A model generated the notes under the pieces. It was given only the letters and a program-made list of their open reading frames with translations. It did not search any database and was not told the origin of the DNA. This document shows, piece by piece, positions 6,086-31,043 of a stretch of 64,000 nucleotides of DNA. Positions within the stretch are counted from its first letter, which is position 1. Each line of letters starts with the position of its first letter. The DNA comes from Bryobacterales bacterium. Lineage in GTDB: Bacteria; Acidobacteriota; Terriglobia; Bryobacterales; Bryobacteraceae. The stretch covers positions 3,318-67,317 of the forward strand of contig JBBQDH010000002.1 of assembly GCA_038319515.1 (NCBI GenBank), in the 5' to 3' direction. Made by a program: the position numbers and the translations under genes.

Positions 6086-6235
6086 CCAAGGCGATGGTCG
6101 TGAGCTGTTCCCCAGGCTTTGTGGTTTCTTATACACTTTAATGCAGCTTAATATTGACAGTAAAACCAGTACAAGCTGGTTTCGAAACGGCGACATCACC
6201 TTAATCTGATCAGGTAACGCCAAAGAGTGGTAAAA

Positions 6236-6553
6236 GTGAAACACAAAAGCCAATCTTTACTGGTTCATCTCGCGGCATTAGTAACGTCGTGCGTTTTTGG
6301 CGTGGGTATCGCCAACGCCACCTGTGGCCAAAATACCGGCTACGCATGTACAGGCACATACGGCGCAGGTGATGCTTGTGCGTGGCCCTGGACTTGTTAC
6401 GTGGCGGAATGTCAGTTCTCAGCGAGCACATGCTACAGTTCCCCGGGCGGAGGGATCGGCACTCCCTGCATCGACGGGAATTGCGGTGTAACTCAATGTG
6501 TGATTTTTCAACCTTCTAACCTGGGTAGCTGGTGCGCGTGCGGTAACTGTTAG
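6236..6553 (+). CDS. small secreted cysteine-rich protein (12 Cys in a ~77-aa mature part), unknown family
   Basis: ORF 6227..6553 has only GTG starts (6227, 6236); AGAGTGG lies just upstream of 6236. Sec-type leader KHKSQSLLVHLAALVTSCVFGVGIANA, then TCGQNTGYACTGTYGAGDACAWPWTCYVAECQFSASTCYSSPGGGIGTPCIDGNCGVTQCVIFQPSNLGSWCACGNC. Lies in an AT-rich patch. Confidence 0.6.
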   Translation: MKHKSQSLLVHLAALVTSCVFGVGIANATCGQNTGYACTGTYGAGDACAWPWTCYVAECQFSASTCYSSPGGGIGTPCIDGNCGVTQCVIFQPSNLGSWCACGNC

Positions 6554-6580: not shown

Positions 6581-7372
6581 ATGAAGAAAACGGTAATTTT
6601 TATCGTGGCGATTGGCATGGCTGTTTCGTATCTGGCCACACGTCAAAGTATTGTTTCGGCGCAGTCTCCCGCGGCGTTCACGCAGGTGTACAACATCTCC
6701 TGGAGAAACCTGGAAAATCCTGGAAAGAACAAGGACGACCGGGAAGTTCTCGCTCAGAAGGCTGATGGCTCAACCAGCCACGCGTCAACCTTTGCCGGTT
6801 CACCCGATCTGGTAAACCGGGCCATTGAATTGGCAACGGGAGAAAGGATCGATGTCAACGATCTTCTGAAAATGAAGAGCACACACTACGCGACTCCTGA
6901 TGTTGTCACGGCCCGAAAGGTCAATCGGCTCACGCCGGCTGCGGATTGCAGTAATTTCAAGGAGAGGGAAGACAACAAACCGGGTCGGGTCTTATTGGGA
7001 AATTTCACATTTCTGAATCATCCGGTAAAGAGGTTTACTGTTACTTTTCAGGCAAACAGTGGAGACCGGATACGCGTAACATCCAGTTACGCTTCTGATT
7101 TGAATTGTGCTGAAGTGGATCGGCTGGAGGAAACTCTCGAGCCTGGAACGGAACGGGTTCTTAAGACTCAGTCGCGCTCCGCTTCCGTGATCACGTCGGG
7201 GCCGCCGGATGAGAAGTATTTCAATATTCCTTCTGATTATCTCGAGGTGCCGCCGAGTACGCTCAACATTGCCTGGGGTAAGCACTTCGGCGTTGATGCA
7301 GACCAGCACATGATCGACGGGTGGGTCAATGTGCTGGACAAAAAGTACTACGAGGCGCAAAAGAAGCAGTAG
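6581..7372 (+). CDS. secreted hypothetical protein (263 aa)
   Basis: ATG preceded by GAAGAAGAGGA. Signal peptide MKKTVIFIVAIGMAVSYLATRQSIVSAQS. I recognise no motif. Lower GC than surroundings (line 6961-7020: 28/60 by hand). Starts 27 nt after the Cys-rich ORF. Confidence 0.7.
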   Translation: MKKTVIFIVAIGMAVSYLATRQSIVSAQSPAAFTQVYNISWRNLENPGKNKDDREVLAQKADGSTSHASTFAGSPDLVNRAIELATGERIDVNDLLKMKSTHYATPDVVTARKVNRLTPAADCSNFKEREDNKPGRVLLGNFTFLNHPVKRFTVTFQANSGDRIRVTSSYASDLNCAEVDRLEETLEPGTERVLKTQSRSASVITSGPPDEKYFNIPSDYLEVPPSTLNIAWGKHFGVDADQHMIDGWVNVLDKKYYEAQKKQ

Positions 7373-25106: not shown

Positions 25107-28100
25107 TTAGAACCTCACCATCAGCGTCAGATTCATTAGCGGCTGGCCACCCAGTGAAGCGGTGGTCGGGTCGCTGGAAACCTTGCCGAACTGCGCAATG
25201 TTGCCGGTGCGGAAATCGACTGTTGTGGTGGGCGGGTTGAAGTTGTAGGTCTTGAAGATATTCTGCATGTCCCAACGCAGCTGCACGTTGTACTTTTCCC
25301 TGATGGTGAAGTTCTTCTGCGCAGAAGCCTGCGACCAGCGGAGCGGCAGACCGTCGATGATGTTGCGGCCCGCCGTGCCGATGCGGAAATCGCATTTGGT
25401 GCGGTCGAAGCCTGCCGGGATCACCGCCGGGCAACCGCCGGGGTAGGCGAAATTCGCCAGACCATTCTGCCCGCCGCTGAAAACAGAATTGATGTTGGCG
25501 TTCACGAAGCGGTCGCCGCCCAGGTCATACCAGCCATCGCGGATGGCGATGGGCCCGGTGACGTCCGGTCGGCCGTTGCCCGCGAAGCCAGGGTAGTAGT
25601 TATAGGGGCTGCCGGTATAGCCGAAGGTGAGCGGGTTGCCACTCTCCTGCGTCTGGATCCAGGAGAGTTCGAAGCCGCCCAGCAGCCATTTCGAGATGCC
25701 GCCGGTGGCCCATTTCTTACCGGCGCCGAAGGGAAGTTCGTAGTTCAGCACGCCAATGAAACGGTGTTTGCGGTCATACCCGGCGCGACCTTTTTCCAGC
25801 CTGCGGTTCTGGATGGGTGCCACGCCCGTGCCATCGTTGTCATTATCCTGCGAGTCGATCGCCTTGGCCAGCGTGTAGAAGGTCTGGAAATACAGACCGT
25901 CCGACATGCGCTTTTCCAGCTTGATGGTGCCTGAGTGGAAGGTGCTGTGACCGAAGTTGGAGCGGAACCGGATATCGCCAAACTGGGGGAACGGGCGATA
26001 GTTCTGGGCCGCGCCATTGACGACGTTCTGCTGCGTGGTGTTGCCCGCGAAATAGTCAACGGGGAAGGTATTCGCCTGCCACCGTTCCAGCAGGCCAACG
26101 CCACTGGACCCCTGATAGCTGAGTTCCAGAAGGTAGTTGCGGCGGAACTCATACTGCGCGCCGGCATTGAAGTTCAGCACGTAGGGATTGCGAAGATTCT
26201 TATCCCACCACTCCACGCTGCGGGAACCGTAGTTGGTGCCGACGAAGGGCGAGGTGCCGTTGGGGCGCTTGATGAAGCTCACCGGGTCCGGGCCACGGCT
26301 GATGCGATAGATCGGGGTCGGATCGCCGGTGGCTGCCTGCTGGTTGGCGATGGCGGTGTACTCATCGAACTGGCCGCGCCCCTGCGGGAATTTGATGTCC
26401 ACCGTGTTCATGCCGAAGCCGCCGCGGAGCACCATCTTCTGCAGCGGATGCCACGCAAGACCGATGCGCGGGTTGAAGTTATTGTTATCGCGATTCGCCA
26501 GGCTGGCGGGGTGAATGATGGCACCGCGGCCACCCGTCAGGTCGTCTTTGCCGGTGGGGTCGAAGCTGCTCAGCGCGCCGTATTTCGTATGGAACGGGCT
26601 TTCGTTGGAATAGCGAACGCCAAGGTTCGCGGTCAGCGTCGGAGTGATCTTCCAGTCGTCCTGCACGTAGAAGCTATGGATGTTGGAGCGTGGCAGCCAA
26701 CTGGTGAGTTCGCTGTTGAATGTGGCCTGCCGAACATAGCCGGTCAGGAAGCCCGCGAAGGTGATGCCGGTGTTCGGAACCGAGGTGCCGTTGGCCTGCA
26801 GGCCGGAAGTAACGCCGTCAAACGCGAAGCTGGAGAAGCGTGCGAAGTTGGCGGAATTCAGTTTGTAGTAGAGGATTTCATAGCCTGCTTTGATGGCGTG
26901 CGCCCCTTTCACCCAGGTAGTGTCGTTGCGGAATGAGAACGTCTCATTCACGGTTTTACTGGGCGTGGCGCCGGTGATGTTGAAGATGCCGAAGGACGGC
27001 ATCAACGCGTTGTCCACGTTCGGAATCCCCAGCTGTGTCGGCCAGTTGCCGCCATAGGATGGCACGGTCGTATCGTTGCGGCGCCGGAAATATCCTACGC
27101 GCGAATCGTTCACCAGGGTGGCACTTTTCAGCCATGTATACCCGACCGAAGAGTTGTTCTGCGTGAACGGGCTGTAATTGCCCTGGGACGCATCAAACGG
27201 CAGGCGGCTTTCCTTAATCGCAACCGGGCGGCCAAAGCCGCTTTGGTCGTTCTCCGTGAAGCTGCCGTAGATCTTGAAAGCGCTGGAAAACTGATGGTCC
27301 ATGCGCACGTTGTAATCGTTGAAGAAGGTGCGGGCGAACTCGTTGGCCAGCACGTTATTGGTGGGGCCGGAGGTGTTGAAGGAGTTCGTGGTGGGGTCCA
27401 CCCAGGGGGCAAAACTGAGCACTTTGTTGGCGACAGGATCGAAGCGGCTTAACGGGATTCTGTTGCCGGCGAACGCATCGCGCGCCCAGCTGCCATCGGC
27501 ATTCCTGCGCGTGGTGGCGGGGTCGTAGATCGCGTTCGCGTTGACGCCGGGGAAGTTGAAATCACCGCCCAGCATGCCCGCGGTGGGCACGGTGGTGAAT
27601 ACCTGCGCGACTTTCTTTTCGTGCAGGCGTTGGTAGCCGAAGAAGAAGAATGTCTTGTTCTTGCCGTTGTAGATGTGGGGCAGAATCACGGGGCCGCTGA
27701 TGTTCGAATCCGGCTGCATGAAGAAGACCGGCAGACCGTTAGGGCGACCGGGATAGGCGTCGGAAGTATGCTTCAGATCGAAGTAGCGCCGGTGCTGCAT
27801 GGAGCGTGTGCGCCCGAACCAGGAACCCATGCCGTGCAGCTCATTCGTACCGCTCTTCTTCACCACGCTGATCACGCCGCCGGCTGAGTGGCCGTATTCG
27901 GCGGGAGCGACCGTAGTGATCACATTCACTTCGGCGACCGAGTTCTGCAGAGGCTTGATAGTGCCGGTGCCCGAGCCCTGATCGTTACCGTTCACGCCGT
28001 CTTCAAAGATGCCGATGGCACCGTTCCGCTGGCCGGCCAGGTGATAGGAGCCGAGGTCGCCACCGTAGGCAAAGCCGCCGCTCGACATGCCGGGCACAAG

Positions 28101-28556
28101 GTTCAGCGTGGCGTTGACGTAGCGCTGGTAGAGCGGGAGTTCGTAGAGAACGTTGCCGCTCATCACCGTGCCGGTGGAAGAGGTCTCGGTATCGAGCAAC
28201 TGGCCCGTGCCCTTCACTTCGATGGAGTCAGAGAGTTGGCCCACCTGCATGGTCATATCCACGGCGAGCGTGTCGCCGGTGTGCAGATCAATGTCGTCGC
28301 GAACCGATTTCTTGAAGCCCGGCGATTCGAAAGTGACGCGATATTCCCCTGGCTGCAGGGATGGCACGCGGTACAGTCCGTCTGAATTGGTGACGGCGTT
28401 ATAGGTGAAATTGGTCGATTTCTGCACGATGTCTACCTTCACCCCGGCGACAACGGCGCTGGAGGGATCGCTGACACGACCGGTGATGGTGGAGGTGCCG
28501 ATCTGCGACCAGGCGGTGATACTGAAGGCACACAGGGCCAGAACTAGTTTGCGCAC
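25107..28556 (-). CDS. TonB-dependent receptor-like outer-membrane protein with N-terminal carboxypeptidase-regulatory-like domain
   Basis: 1149 aa. Signal peptide MRKLVLALCAFSITAWSQ. ITGRVSDPSSAVVAGVKVDI...SDGLYRVPSLQPGEYRVTFESPGFK (CarboxypepD_reg). Long beta-barrel-like body and terminal ...LTLMVRF. Confidence 0.9.
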   Translation of the reverse strand: MRKLVLALCAFSITAWSQIGTSTITGRVSDPSSAVVAGVKVDIVQKSTNFTYNAVTNSDGLYRVPSLQPGEYRVTFESPGFKKSVRDDIDLHTGDTLAVDMTMQVGQLSDSIEVKGTGQLLDTETSSTGTVMSGNVLYELPLYQRYVNATLNLVPGMSSGGFAYGGDLGSYHLAGQRNGAIGIFEDGVNGNDQGSGTGTIKPLQNSVAEVNVITTVAPAEYGHSAGGVISVVKKSGTNELHGMGSWFGRTRSMQHRRYFDLKHTSDAYPGRPNGLPVFFMQPDSNISGPVILPHIYNGKNKTFFFFGYQRLHEKKVAQVFTTVPTAGMLGGDFNFPGVNANAIYDPATTRRNADGSWARDAFAGNRIPLSRFDPVANKVLSFAPWVDPTTNSFNTSGPTNNVLANEFARTFFNDYNVRMDHQFSSAFKIYGSFTENDQSGFGRPVAIKESRLPFDASQGNYSPFTQNNSSVGYTWLKSATLVNDSRVGYFRRRNDTTVPSYGGNWPTQLGIPNVDNALMPSFGIFNITGATPSKTVNETFSFRNDTTWVKGAHAIKAGYEILYYKLNSANFARFSSFAFDGVTSGLQANGTSVPNTGITFAGFLTGYVRQATFNSELTSWLPRSNIHSFYVQDDWKITPTLTANLGVRYSNESPFHTKYGALSSFDPTGKDDLTGGRGAIIHPASLANRDNNNFNPRIGLAWHPLQKMVLRGGFGMNTVDIKFPQGRGQFDEYTAIANQQAATGDPTPIYRISRGPDPVSFIKRPNGTSPFVGTNYGSRSVEWWDKNLRNPYVLNFNAGAQYEFRRNYLLELSYQGSSGVGLLERWQANTFPVDYFAGNTTQQNVVNGAAQNYRPFPQFGDIRFRSNFGHSTFHSGTIKLEKRMSDGLYFQTFYTLAKAIDSQDNDNDGTGVAPIQNRRLEKGRAGYDRKHRFIGVLNYELPFGAGKKWATGGISKWLLGGFELSWIQTQESGNPLTFGYTGSPYNYYPGFAGNGRPDVTGPIAIRDGWYDLGGDRFVNANINSVFSGGQNGLANFAYPGGCPAVIPAGFDRTKCDFRIGTAGRNIIDGLPLRWSQASAQKNFTIREKYNVQLRWDMQNIFKTYNFNPPTTTVDFRTGNIAQFGKVSSDPTTASLGGQPLMNLTLMVRF

Positions 28557-28636: not shown

Positions 28637-29425
28637 TTAATTTGGCGTTGGCTTTCTCTCGATATGGTCGATATTCAGCATCTTCAGGGTCACGCGCTGT
28701 TTCGTGAACTGCAGGCCGACGGAATCACCGACCAGCTTGAGCATTCGCGAATCCGCTTGTGGCTCCGTGATCGCTGGGCCGTCGGGATCGACCGGCCATT
28801 CCAGTTCAAATGTGTAGGAACCGGAAATGCCGGTTCGGTCTTCAATAGGCGCGCCGATCACGTTGTAGCTGAATGCGTTGACAAACCTGCTGAAAGGCAC
28901 GGCAGTGGCGCCAAATTTCCCTCCCCGCAGATTCACGTGGACCGCATATCTGCCAGGAACAGGCGTGATTGGTTTGGGTTTAAAGCCCTCGGGCGCGATT
29001 GTGAGGAGGTAGCCGTCGACCTGCTTGTCGCTCCAGTGGAACTGCAGGCTAAACCTCTCGGCCAGCAGCGCCCGTAACATGGCCATGGCTCCATCGAGTG
29101 TCGTACCTGGGGTCGTGACAGCATCTATTTCAAACCTGTCAAACAGAATCCAGTCGGGACCCGCGATCTCACGCGCCTCAATTTTATATGCATGCTGGAG
29201 AAATTCCGAAATCGGTCCGACGCCGCTAACCCTGTCGCCTGTGAGGGTCGGTGTCTTTGATCGCAGGTTGGCGGTGACGGGAACAGGCTTTACGGAAGCG
29301 ACTTCAAATTTCAAATCGCCACCGGGGACAGATTGTCCTTCGCTGAGTTGGGCGAAGAACATCCCCTGTACAAAAAGAACATGAAGAACAGCTAAATGTG
29401 TGGAGCGTATCTTTGAATCCCTCAT
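28637..29425 (-). CDS. TIGR03435-family (soil-associated, Acidobacteria-type) secreted protein
   Basis: 262 aa. Signal peptide, then FEVASVKPV...ISEFLQHAYKIEAREIAGPDWILFDRFEIDA...LLAERFSLQFHWSDKQVDGYLLTIA...LVGDSVGLQFTKQRVTLKMLNIDHIERKPTPN. From memory this matches the TIGR03435 pattern. Confidence 0.75.
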   Translation of the reverse strand: MRDSKIRSTHLAVLHVLFVQGMFFAQLSEGQSVPGGDLKFEVASVKPVPVTANLRSKTPTLTGDRVSGVGPISEFLQHAYKIEAREIAGPDWILFDRFEIDAVTTPGTTLDGAMAMLRALLAERFSLQFHWSDKQVDGYLLTIAPEGFKPKPITPVPGRYAVHVNLRGGKFGATAVPFSRFVNAFSYNVIGAPIEDRTGISGSYTFELEWPVDPDGPAITEPQADSRMLKLVGDSVGLQFTKQRVTLKMLNIDHIERKPTPN

Positions 29426-29562: not shown

Positions 29563-29793
29563 TCACACGATCACGCAAAGCTCATCAGACGATCCGTCAC
29601 ATTGCCCTATGAGTTCGCACTGCTGTGCATTTGTAACCCAGCCGCACACTTCGCGATACTCGTTCGGGCAGCAGATAGTTTTACAAATATATGTATTACC
29701 CCACAGCGCTTGCGCCGTCAACAGCCCGCTGACCGCTGTCAAAAAAGCGAGGCGCAACCGCCGCCCATGTTTCTGTAACTGTCTTGCTTTCAT
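29563..29793 (-). CDS. small secreted cysteine-rich peptide (76-aa precursor, 7 Cys in a ~46-aa mature part), unknown family
   Basis: ATG 29793 sits 10 nt after GGAGG of a perfect AAGGAGGTGA and 7 nt after the thioredoxin stop. MKARQLQKHGRRLRLAFLTAVSGLLTAQA / LWGNTYICKTICCPNEYREVCGWVTNAQQCELIGQCDGSSDELCVIV. Confidence 0.75.
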   Translation of the reverse strand: MKARQLQKHGRRLRLAFLTAVSGLLTAQALWGNTYICKTICCPNEYREVCGWVTNAQQCELIGQCDGSSDELCVIV

Positions 29794-29800
29794 CTTCTCC

Positions 29801-29810
29801 TCACCTCCTT
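29801..29810 (-). promoter_or_regulatory. Shine-Dalgarno AAGGAGGTGA for the Cys-rich peptide gene, embedded in the last codons and stop of the thioredoxin gene
   Basis: The minus strand reads ...gaa agg agg tga ggagaag ATG. This is a 9-10 nt complement to the canonical 16S 3' end. Confidence 0.7.
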
Positions 29811-30313
29811 TCAGTTGTGCCTTCAAACGCTTTCAATACCGCCGCTTCCCGGCGTGAGTCCAGAGCGCCAACAAACGAATTACTCACCAGCCCGGTGCGA
29901 TCAGCGATCAAGATCGTTGGGGTTCCGCTTAACGGGAGCAGAGAGCGGTCGAGAGGGTACACTCCGTCAACGGAAACTTGATGCTCTGCCAGATATCGAC
30001 GAATATTGTCAGGCGGGTCCAGCGATACAACCCGCAAGGCAACTCCAGCCGGCCTCAAGCTGCGCGCCTCTGAAAGCCGCCTGTAAAATGGGAGGCTCTC
30101 GGCACAGAACTTGCAATGAGTGGAGATAAAGAGCACGGCGTTCACTGGAGAAGATTTCCAGTCAACTCCCGCAATAGCTATATGTTGGCCCGCGAGTTGT
30201 TCTTGATGGGCGGAGACAGCCCTTCGCGCGAAACGCTGCTCAAGGAGTGTGCCGGAGGACACCAACGCGGCTGAGATAACAGCAACATAAGCAGCTTTCT
30301 CCAGAATATGCAT
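29801..30313 (-). CDS. membrane-anchored TlpA/ResA-like thioredoxin-fold thiol-disulfide oxidoreductase
   Basis: ORF 29801..30328; ATG 30313 preferred (GGAGAAGG upstream). TM anchor AAYVAVISAALVSSGTLL, CxxC motif FISTHCKFCAES, and a cis-Pro context (LSGTPTILIAD). Confidence 0.8.
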   Translation of the reverse strand: MHILEKAAYVAVISAALVSSGTLLEQRFARRAVSAHQEQLAGQHIAIAGVDWKSSPVNAVLFISTHCKFCAESLPFYRRLSEARSLRPAGVALRVVSLDPPDNIRRYLAEHQVSVDGVYPLDRSLLPLSGTPTILIADRTGLVSNSFVGALDSRREAAVLKAFEGTTERR

Positions 30314-30480
30314 ACCTGCCTTCTCCACCTCGTGATTTTTACCGAACCGACGAACCCGCTGACGAATGTTGGTCAGGTGCCGCTCAATTGACAGAGGGAT
30401 TGTGGAGGCTGAATCTTACACTTTGATAAAAAAATTCCCCACCATCACCTAAGTTTGCGTTTTCGCGTAATGTGAATGCA

Positions 30481-31043
30481 TTATTGTTGATCTCGTCGAC
30501 GGGGCACCTCACCGGTGAGGTGCCTGAGCCGATCCAGCGCACGCCGTTTTACGACGGAAACACGGTCGGCAGGGATGCCAAGACACTTCGCAATATCCTG
30601 CATGCCAAGTTCCTCAAAGAAATACATCCGGATAACGTCTCGGTCGCGCTTGCTGCTTAAACCGCGAATGAGACGAGCTGCGTCTTCCCTTATCCACCTC
30701 TGTTCAAGACCGCCAATAGTACAGAAAGATACATGTTCAGGGGGGGCTGACAGCGGGAATATTTCAGTTTCCCGACCGCCGTTCGCCTGGCAATAACTGC
30801 AAGCCAGTTCTCCAACGGACCTTCTCCCCTCCACTTGTTCAGTTGTTGCCATTCGCTCTCCAAAAAATTCACAAATATCTCATTCACCAGATCCTGGTCC
30901 TGAAATCGTTTGGTCGCAGGGGTGGCTGCTTTCTGAAGTAGCTCGTGGAAAGCTGTAATAGCATCCGAGTTTCCCTCGCGCACTCGGAGGATGAGGTCAC
31001 GCTGGTCAGCTATAGTCATCATCGCGGGCTTCATTAGCTGCAT
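30481..31043 (-). pseudogene. ECF sigma factor interrupted by a frameshift (candidate site: G7/C7 homopolymer at 30740-30746)
   Basis: Track ORF 30690..31043 carries region 2 (DLVNEIFVNFLES...ENWLAVIARRTAVGKLK). Overlapping ORF 30481..30852, in another frame, carries region 4 (KRDRDVIRMYFFEELGMQDIAKCLGIPADRVSVVKRRALDRLRHL). Adding one C to the C7 run joins them into a ~187-aa ECF-sized protein. Confidence 0.75.

Follow-up and report, generated by a model that had tools for sequence, protein, structure and literature searches.

The 64,000-nt stretch of the Bryobacterales bacterium contig JBBQDH010000002.1 analyzed here (the window; all coordinates are window positions) encodes on its minus strand a putatively membrane-anchored thiol-disulfide oxidoreductase of predicted thioredoxin fold (hereafter, the enzyme), followed 7 nt downstream by a small cysteine-rich precursor with a secretion leader (the peptide; Table 1). 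In the direction of transcription, this pair is preceded by a gene for an extracytoplasmic function (ECF) sigma factor, ~150 nt from the enzyme gene, and followed after a 137-nt gap by a TIGR03435/DUF3738 gene and then by a gene for an outer-membrane barrel protein, all on the same strand. The junction between enzyme and peptide, taken as the reverse complement of 29791-29819, runs ...ACA ACT GAA AGG AGG TGA GGAGAAG ATG. Direct reading thus confirmed the layout given in an initial annotation, in which a CKFC thioredoxin-fold gene ends in GAA AGG AGG TGA and the peptide ATG lies 7 nt on, as well as its proposal that the Shine–Dalgarno sequence of the peptide is built into the end of the enzyme gene, where AAGGAGGTGA spans the last codons and the stop. 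The Arg/Lys-rich Sec leader ending in AQA (six K/R in its n-region) and the seven cysteines, including a CCP motif, were also read as first described, with gaps of 3, 0, 7, 8, 5 and 7 residues between cysteines; the mature part, given as ~46 residues, comprises 47, counted from a cleavage site that was read by eye and is predicted only.

Table 1 Features of the enzyme–peptide locus and adjoining genes in the window
Feature	Position	Strand	Details
ECF-type sigma factor gene, frameshifted	30481-31043	-	Two overlapping open reading frames, 30690-31043 and 30481-30852
Oxidoreductase gene, predicted thioredoxin fold	29801-30313	-	170 aa from ATG (MHILEK...); alternative GTG start at 30328
N-terminal hydrophobic helix, putative membrane anchor, AAYVAVISAALVSSGTLL	30239-30298	-	About residues 6-25; hydropathy window
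Active-site CKFC	30104-30115	-	Residues 67-70; invariant columns in family alignments
T-P-T loop, corresponding to the cis-proline loop of thioredoxin folds	29915-29923	-	Residues 131-133; invariant in alignments
Shine–Dalgarno sequence AAGGAGGTGA	29801-29810	-	Overlaps the last two codons of the enzyme gene and its TGA stop; direct reading
Spacer GGAGAAG before the peptide ATG	29794-29800	-	7 nt
Peptide precursor open reading frame	29563-29793	-	76 aa plus stop; ATG at 29791-29793
Sec-type leader MKARQLQKHGRRLRLAFLTAVSGLLTAQA	29707-29793	-	Residues 1-29; basic n-region, hydrophobic core, A-Q-A; by eye
Predicted mature peptide LWGNTYICKTICCPNEYREVCGWVTNAQQCELIGQCDGSSDELCVIV	29566-29706	-	47 aa, 7 Cys, net charge -4
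TIGR03435/DUF3738 protein gene	28637-29425	-	262 aa; Pfam DUF3738 4e-31, NCBIfam TIGR03435 6.6e-42
Outer-membrane barrel protein gene	25107-28556	-	1149 aa, CarboxypepD_reg domain; Pfam/NCBIfam scan

The peptide frame had the best codon-usage score of the six possible frames (-0.12 versus -0.28 or worse), and the enzyme gene scored -0.13. An Rfam scan revealed no family relevant to the peptide stretch, the opposite-strand open reading frames (ORFs) over it had no NCBIfam match competing for the region, and a promoter and terminator scan returned counts no higher than in shuffled sequence.

We scanned one genome per species with the motif FC[SAT][EKN]S[MLA]PFY, revealing 104 loci, of which 80 were retained. 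All 80 were from Acidobacteriota (Pyrinomonadaceae, Blastocatellia, Terriglobia, Bryobacterales, Luteitalea, Holophagales and Acidiferrales), a pattern that, coming from a single scanned motif, is suggestive only of a family restricted to this phylum. Genes were called with our own heuristics, and neighboring ORFs were counted as peptide genes when a basic N-terminus was combined with a hydrophobic stretch and with four or more cysteines, a crude rule of our own and not a trained predictor. By this rule, a same-strand leader ORF with 4-37 cysteines was found within 400 nt of the enzyme gene in 53 of 84 genome loci. Rule-passing ORFs occurred at a density of 0.83 per kb on the same strand within this distance versus 0.054 per kb on both strands more than 1.5 kb away, so that cysteine-rich secreted ORFs are enriched beside the enzyme gene ~30-fold over their per-strand density farther off. 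In independent JGI metagenome contigs, the neighbor was present in 44 of 80 loci; of the 39 loci flanked on each side by at least 650 nt, 26 had it. Together, the genome loci and fully flanked metagenome loci bear out the pairing that the initial annotation had proposed to trace by neighborhood mining. All four of the closest enzyme relatives that were intact and had usable flanks adjoined a peptide gene: a 91-aa leader ORF with 8 cysteines ending 3 nt upstream of the enzyme gene (L001), a 66-aa leader ORF with 6 cysteines overlapping the enzyme stop codon (L002), a 91-aa ORF with 12 cysteines also overlapping the enzyme stop codon (L086) and a 67-aa ORF with 6 cysteines 2 nt downstream of the enzyme gene (L167). 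In a further locus, an 83-aa ORF with 8 cysteines lies ~1 kb upstream (L084). The adjacency of the enzyme and a cysteine-rich secreted ORF is therefore conserved across Acidobacteriota, and what is kept is the class of neighbor, not its sequence.

Several loci were more elaborate. Two tandem enzyme paralogues are followed by two peptide genes at L007:3959-5791, three peptide genes stand in tandem at L081:4546-5514, and peptide genes flank the enzyme gene on both sides at L061:3624-5260. Larger secreted neighbors of 230-350 aa with 28-37 cysteines, some bearing Gly runs or (GDPCC)n repeats, were seen at L015:4344-5042, L026:4413-5162 and L030:5309-6352, and in L128, L131, L132 and L136 (273 aa). 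In L092, an ORF ending 19 nt upstream of the enzyme gene encodes a secreted protein of 113 aa, which contains 19 cysteines and a (GGCY)n repeat. In some loci, the enzyme gene is directly followed by genes for secreted proteins of 250-275 aa that have few cysteines and fall into two families (L010, L012 and L042; L022, L033 and L064), with leaders resembling those of the cysteine-rich peptides.

In a sequence search, the enzyme had only three distant relatives among 5.8 billion protein clusters. A profile built from these four proteins matched 6,026 of 1.84 billion cluster representatives at E<=0.001 and, at E<=1e-10, 3,686; almost all matches were 160-190 aa in length. Against the PDB, the profile retrieved the DsbE-like structure 3gl3 first (E=7.8e-5), then ResA and StoA, with DsbC appearing only as a weak partial match (4fyb, E=0.28). 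An AlphaFold2 model from nine sequences (predicted local distance difference test (pLDDT) score, 81) placed a continuous helix at residues 2-40 ahead of a thioredoxin fold, and a Foldseek search with this model returned DsbE, ResA, CcmG and TlpA as top matches (3gl3 and 3kcm among the entries; E 3e-7 to 3e-5; TM-scores of 0.57-0.69, normalized by target length), the TlpA–ScoI complex 4txo also being among the matches. In Pfam, the window enzyme remained below threshold (AhpC-TSA, 16.2 bits versus a cut-off of 26) and its only NCBIfam match was TrbB (E=0.043), while some relatives exceeded the Redoxin cut-off of 26.6 (P0009, 32.3 bits; P0010, 36.1 bits). The thioredoxin assignment first made from the sequence thus fell short in Pfam; its support comes from the profile, from the model and from the fold search, by which the enzyme is a TlpA/ResA/DsbE-like thioredoxin-fold protein that has CXXC and a cis-proline loop.

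The family has the active site C-[H/R/K]-[F/Y]-C followed by S-x-P-F-Y; aromatic residues occupy the second X in 203 of 205 members, and the cis-proline loop is GTPT in 155 of 205. The window enzyme follows this pattern (CKFCAESLPFY and GTPT) and retains every residue that is invariant in alignments of its family. An aromatic second X is also present in the disulfide isomerases DsbC (CGYC) and DsbG (CPYC), in keeping with an isomerase-like role of the enzyme. Longer family members considered as possible fusion enzymes (P0032, P0030, P0068 and P0076) had no cysteine-rich extension and were set aside. Two close relatives have degenerate C-termini after the TPT loop (L003:438-1028 and L168:2040-2534), the former beside IS1595-type transposase genes, and such copies are signs of turnover and decay of these units.

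Because ResA, CcmG, DsbE and TlpA match it best in structure and sequence, the enzyme might be a housekeeping TlpA/ResA-type protein for the maturation of cytochrome c or copper centers, with the small ORF beside it incidental. We regard this as very improbable: cysteine-rich neighbors are strongly enriched in two independent sets of loci, several genomes carry at least two enzyme copies (for example, L018/L027, L025/L026 and L006/L074), and the CXXC dipeptide is unlike the Pro-containing motifs of ResA, CcmG and TlpA. Moreover, no recurrent ccm, ccs, CcdA, Sco or cytochrome genes were found among the 138 nearest neighbors, judged by their 25 commonest Pfam families, so that, by context, the enzyme is not the cytochrome-maturation orthologue whose discovery the initial annotation had named as fatal to its proposal.

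The neighboring peptides form a class by their properties, with an even number of cysteines after the leader in 57 of 60 (6 to 20; binomial p=6e-14, a value behind which stand fewer independent counts, as some of the peptides are close homologues). Even counts are expected if all cysteines pair into disulfides. The earlier idea that the odd count of the window peptide leaves a thiol free for an intermolecular disulfide or a thioether found no support here; odd counts are the exception (3 of 60), and so not a design feature, and nothing nearby suggests thioether chemistry. The commonest gaps between cysteines were CX3C and CX6C (CX3C...CX3C in 40 of 58 peptides and CX6C...CX6C in 37 of 58), a spacing which suggests disulfide-stapled helical hairpins. 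We found no convincing Pfam or NCBIfam family for the 58 related-locus peptides (three marginal matches; best E=0.0014), and a profile of all peptides matched only neurotoxin B-IV in the PDB, without significance (E=0.15). Twin-arginine export, considered because many leaders contain RR, was set aside since RK, KR and QK variants are common; substrates of that pathway fold before export. A lipoprotein signal was likewise rejected, as L-x-G-C occurs in some leaders with a cysteine that is not conserved.

Peptides diverge faster than the enzymes beside them, with identities for enzyme versus peptide of 96% versus 43% (L080/L081), 82% versus 52% (L057/L062) and 65% versus 10% (L043/L071). Rapid divergence and tandem duplication would fit antagonistic or interaction-type molecules. 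The mature parts contain 14.7% Cys, 11.3% D+E, 4.0% K+R, 1.4% His and 1.1% Met, and 54 of 58 are net negative, an acidity which argues against classical cationic membrane-active peptides.

This composition also bears on the redox role of the enzyme, which could act on the peptide as a reductase and hold it in reduced form in the periplasm of the producer, either in self-protection against a peptide that would be active with its disulfides formed or to supply free thiols for a periplasmic metal-binding or oxidant-scavenging buffer. The fold family speaks for it (ResA, CcmG, TlpA and StoA are mainly reductants, some of them tied to copper, as in TlpA–ScoI), as do the very high cysteine content and the fact that the gene beside a bacteriocin toxin gene is typically an immunity gene. 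However, complete pairing into disulfides would predict the even cysteine counts and thiolate metal sites would not, there is little His or Met, cysteine spacing differs widely between loci, and neither a CcdA/DsbD-type donor nor metal-resistance genes recur beside the enzyme. We therefore think a reductase unlikely, though less so than a housekeeping function.

Our preferred reading, to which we assign a probability of about 60%, is that the locus is a two-gene unit in which a periplasmic oxidoreductase or isomerase is dedicated to one secreted client with several disulfides. The product of the first gene would be a thiol-disulfide oxidoreductase that its single N-terminal helix anchors in the inner membrane, and the second gene would be translated from the same mRNA, presumably coupled to the first through the ribosome-binding site inside its end. 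The peptide would then be exported by Sec, its cysteines being paired into disulfides once across the membrane, with the enzyme as dedicated catalyst or proof-reader of this pairing, by oxidation or, more likely for a client with many disulfides, by isomerization. Clients with 3 to at least 10 disulfides are prone to pairing errors that need correcting. The product would be a folded, acidic, fast-evolving peptide that may serve as an antagonistic peptide, an inhibitor or a signal.

Several observations weigh against this interpretation. About one third of loci had no adjacent peptide by our rule, and the rule itself is simple. No DsbB/VKOR or CcdA/DsbD electron partner is encoded near the enzyme genes. 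TlpA/ResA/CcmG-type proteins are mostly reductants, so that the name oxidase is not established for the enzyme and what we call a folding catalyst could be a reductase. The catalytic domain most likely faces the periplasm, judging from fold family and context, but the charge flanking the helix (family averages of 2.06 K+R before and 2.49 after) does not settle its orientation. Among 5.8 billion protein clusters, moreover, the window peptide had no match other than itself, and the profile made from the 57 other peptides scored it at E=0.009 among 917 window ORFs, which is not significant. Its seven cysteines are one of the three odd counts, and it has neither the CX3C...CX3C nor the CX6C...CX6C spacing.

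The window peptide is thus a divergent, slightly atypical member of the class: an orphan with seven cysteines, lying in a block of low GC content. It had no Pfam, NCBIfam or PDB sequence match, a profile of leaders alone scored it at E=0.6 among the same 917 ORFs (not significant), and a single-sequence AlphaFold2 model was uninformative (pLDDT, 50). By eye, its leader resembles the 'RRLxxLAVLVxGL' pattern common in related-locus leaders; given the profile scores, we claim no sequence homology to the other peptides. The initial annotation had made conservation of the small ORF a condition for its proposal, and here the outcome was divided, the class of neighbor being conserved and the sequence and cysteine positions of the window peptide not. 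A C-terminal C-V-I-V (29566-29577, minus strand) was considered as a CaaX prenylation box and treated as a coincidence; we know of no CaaX-type system for Sec-exported bacterial peptides.

The block at 28.6-31.2 kb forms a low-GC island (0.51-0.55 versus 0.59-0.64 in the flanks) with a GC content at third codon positions (GC3) of 0.55-0.61 versus 0.72-0.80 in adjoining genes, which suggests that the sigma factor, enzyme, peptide and TIGR03435 genes make up an accessory or recently acquired segment. The unit in the window could be decaying or silent, its small ORF a degraded or non-expressed remnant of a class that is real elsewhere. Base composition, the odd cysteine count, the orphan status of the peptide and the frameshift in the adjoining sigma gene all speak for decay, and degenerate enzyme copies do exist elsewhere, as in L168 and in L003 with its IS1595 transposase. 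Nevertheless, the enzyme has lost none of the family-invariant residues, and the peptide ORF is unbroken, keeps its leader whole, is preceded by a strong ribosome-binding site and has the most favorable codon score of the six frames, while the sigma frameshift, lying in a homopolymer, could stem from misassembly. On balance, we judge a decaying or silent unit to be improbable, to about the same degree as a reductase.

The closest functional precedents for a dedicated enzyme and its client are bacteriocin loci with thiol-disulfide oxidoreductases of their own (PedC, BlpG(St) and BdbA/B), which are needed or helpful for correct disulfides (PMC4919988). The precedent of BdbA/BdbB, cited in the initial annotation for a dedicated oxidoreductase within a peptide locus, therefore holds. 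In the loci of pediocin PA-1 (PedC), thermophilin 9 (BlpG(St)) and sublancin 168 (BdbA/BdbB), as in Acidobacteriota, a CXXC thioredoxin-fold protein is encoded beside an exported cysteine-containing peptide. Unlike the acidobacterial unit, with its diderm host and Sec-type leader, these systems are found in Firmicutes, and PedC and Blp use double-glycine leaders and an ABC transporter/C39 peptidase; the sublancin system includes a DsbB-like partner and a glycosyltransferase, whereas no transporter, immunity or modifying gene recurs in the acidobacterial loci. The enzymes also differ in the sub-type of their fold. Peptides of the PedC, BlpG and Bdb systems have 2-5 cysteines, compared with 6-20 in the acidobacterial peptides and up to 37 in neighboring proteins. 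The window enzyme had no match to PedC/BrcD-type bacteriocin transport accessory proteins in NCBIfam or Pfam at E<=0.1, and the window locus contains no double-glycine leader, ABC/C39 gene or immunity gene, its neighbors being the sigma factor, TIGR03435 and outer-membrane barrel genes. The bacteriocin-like activity suggested at the outset is accordingly unsupported, given the acidity of the peptides and the lack of an immunity gene, an exporter and a C39 peptidase.

Glycocins (sublancin, glycocin F, pallidocin and enterocin F4-9) are helix-loop-helix peptides with nested CX6C disulfides whose loci include thiol-disulfide oxidoreductases. The paired CX6C spacing of many acidobacterial peptides resembles theirs, although the window peptide has no CX6C pair and no glycosyltransferase is encoded in the window block or among recurrent enzyme neighbors. 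Sublancin also has an odd cysteine count. TlpA, ResA, CcmG (DsbE) and StoA share with the acidobacterial enzyme the fold, an N-terminal membrane anchor, a CXXC motif at a helix start and the cis-proline loop. They reduce specific clients (apocytochrome c, Sco/CoxB and spore cortex proteins) and belong to or work together with ccm/ccs/CcdA systems, and their CXXC dipeptide usually contains Pro. In contrast, the acidobacterial dipeptide is [H/R/K][F/Y] and the genomic context a cysteine-rich secreted peptide. With DsbC and DsbG, the likeness lies in the aromatic second X and in the expected job of mending pairings in many-cysteine clients, but those isomerases are soluble V-shaped dimers with an N-terminal dimerization domain, and the acidobacterial enzyme would have just one thioredoxin domain, attached to a membrane helix. 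Finally, bacterial cis-defensins (CS-alpha-beta) are also small, Sec-secreted and disulfide-rich, and a survey of them lists one Acidobacteria member and mentions neither thioredoxin nor oxidoreductase (PMC11561630). Their pattern, CX(2,18)CX3CX(2,12)CX(4,17)CXC, matched one of 58 related-locus peptides and not the window peptide.

A dedicated oxidoreductase beside its disulfide peptide is thus a known principle, while the family-level acidobacterial pattern appears undescribed. The initial impression of a peptide belonging to no recognized family, in a system without a described acidobacterial equivalent, stands, as we found neither a Pfam or NCBIfam model nor a published account of this enzyme paired with a cysteine-rich peptide. 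Overall, the first interpretation of the locus was partly supported. In soil, Acidobacteriota rank among the most abundant bacteria, and little is known of their secretions. The enzyme family comprises several thousand cluster representatives at the stricter threshold, and secreted, disulfide-rich peptides without an annotated family are encoded at about two thirds of the loci sampled. The enzyme gene offers a simple genomic marker for orphan peptide genes that are often not called at all. If the units make stable disulfide-stapled peptides, they would represent a large pool of scaffolds and of candidate antimicrobials, inhibitors and signals. As a defined enzyme–client pair, they also raise the possibility that a TlpA-type fold has been recruited for oxidative folding or isomerization instead of reduction.

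A broader extrapolation, which we offer tentatively and consider likelier to fail than to hold, is that the units constitute a phylum-wide acidobacterial arsenal of hypervariable, Sec-secreted molecules, both peptides and small proteins, carrying from 3 to more than 15 disulfides, in which each gene or tandem set has its own membrane-anchored TlpA-like foldase with a C-[H/R]-[F/Y]-C active site and which operates without RiPP (ribosomally synthesized and post-translationally modified peptide) enzymes, ABC exporters or immunity genes. If true, this would be a bacterial counterpart of the pattern of conserved helper and fast-evolving cysteine-rich effector seen in conotoxins and fungal effectors.

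We also looked for further conserved components around the enzyme gene. Clustering of neighbors gave small groups only, and in a Pfam scan of the 138 nearest non-cysteine-rich neighbors, which revealed no third conserved gene, the commonest family was VWA with five members. ABC/C39, immunity, glycosyltransferase and radical-SAM genes did not recur among these neighbors, and metal-resistance genes were not recurrent beside the enzyme. A TIGR03435/DUF3738 gene adjoins the enzyme in three other loci (L059:4535-5359, L068:2874-3635 and L070:2964-3929), labeled Acidobacteriota only, Acidobacteriia and Solibacteraceae, respectively. The link is weak, and TIGR03435 may be an extra operon member or lineage-specific third component, or may occur by chance owing to its many paralogues.

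The ECF sigma gene noted upstream in the initial annotation is present and on the same strand, but it is frameshifted and its link to the enzyme is not conserved. The frameshift lies at a C7 run (G7 on the plus strand; 30740-30746), leaving region 2 and region 4 in separate ORFs, and one added C restores a 187-aa sigma factor that matches TIGR02937 over positions 6-163/165 with 52.9 bits (cut-off, 42.9). It could reflect a homopolymer assembly error, a pseudogene or phase variation. Proximity to the sigma gene and the lack of a classical anti-sigma gene leave room for an ECF signaling module made up of the three genes, in which the membrane protein or the peptide would act as the missing anti-sigma factor or sensor. 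This seems highly unlikely to us, because the cytoplasmic N-terminal stub of the enzyme, at ~5 residues, is too short to bind a sigma factor, and sigma genes neighbor the enzyme in only 2 of 138 cases, none of them resembling the window sigma, which is itself interrupted. A conserved partnership with the sigma factor was therefore rejected.

Elsewhere in the window, a second secreted cysteine-rich ORF occurs on the plus strand (6227-6553; 108 aa, Gly/Thr-rich, 12 cysteines past the leader). It is followed by a gene for a 263-aa secreted protein (6581-7372, plus strand), and no thioredoxin-like gene adjoins them.

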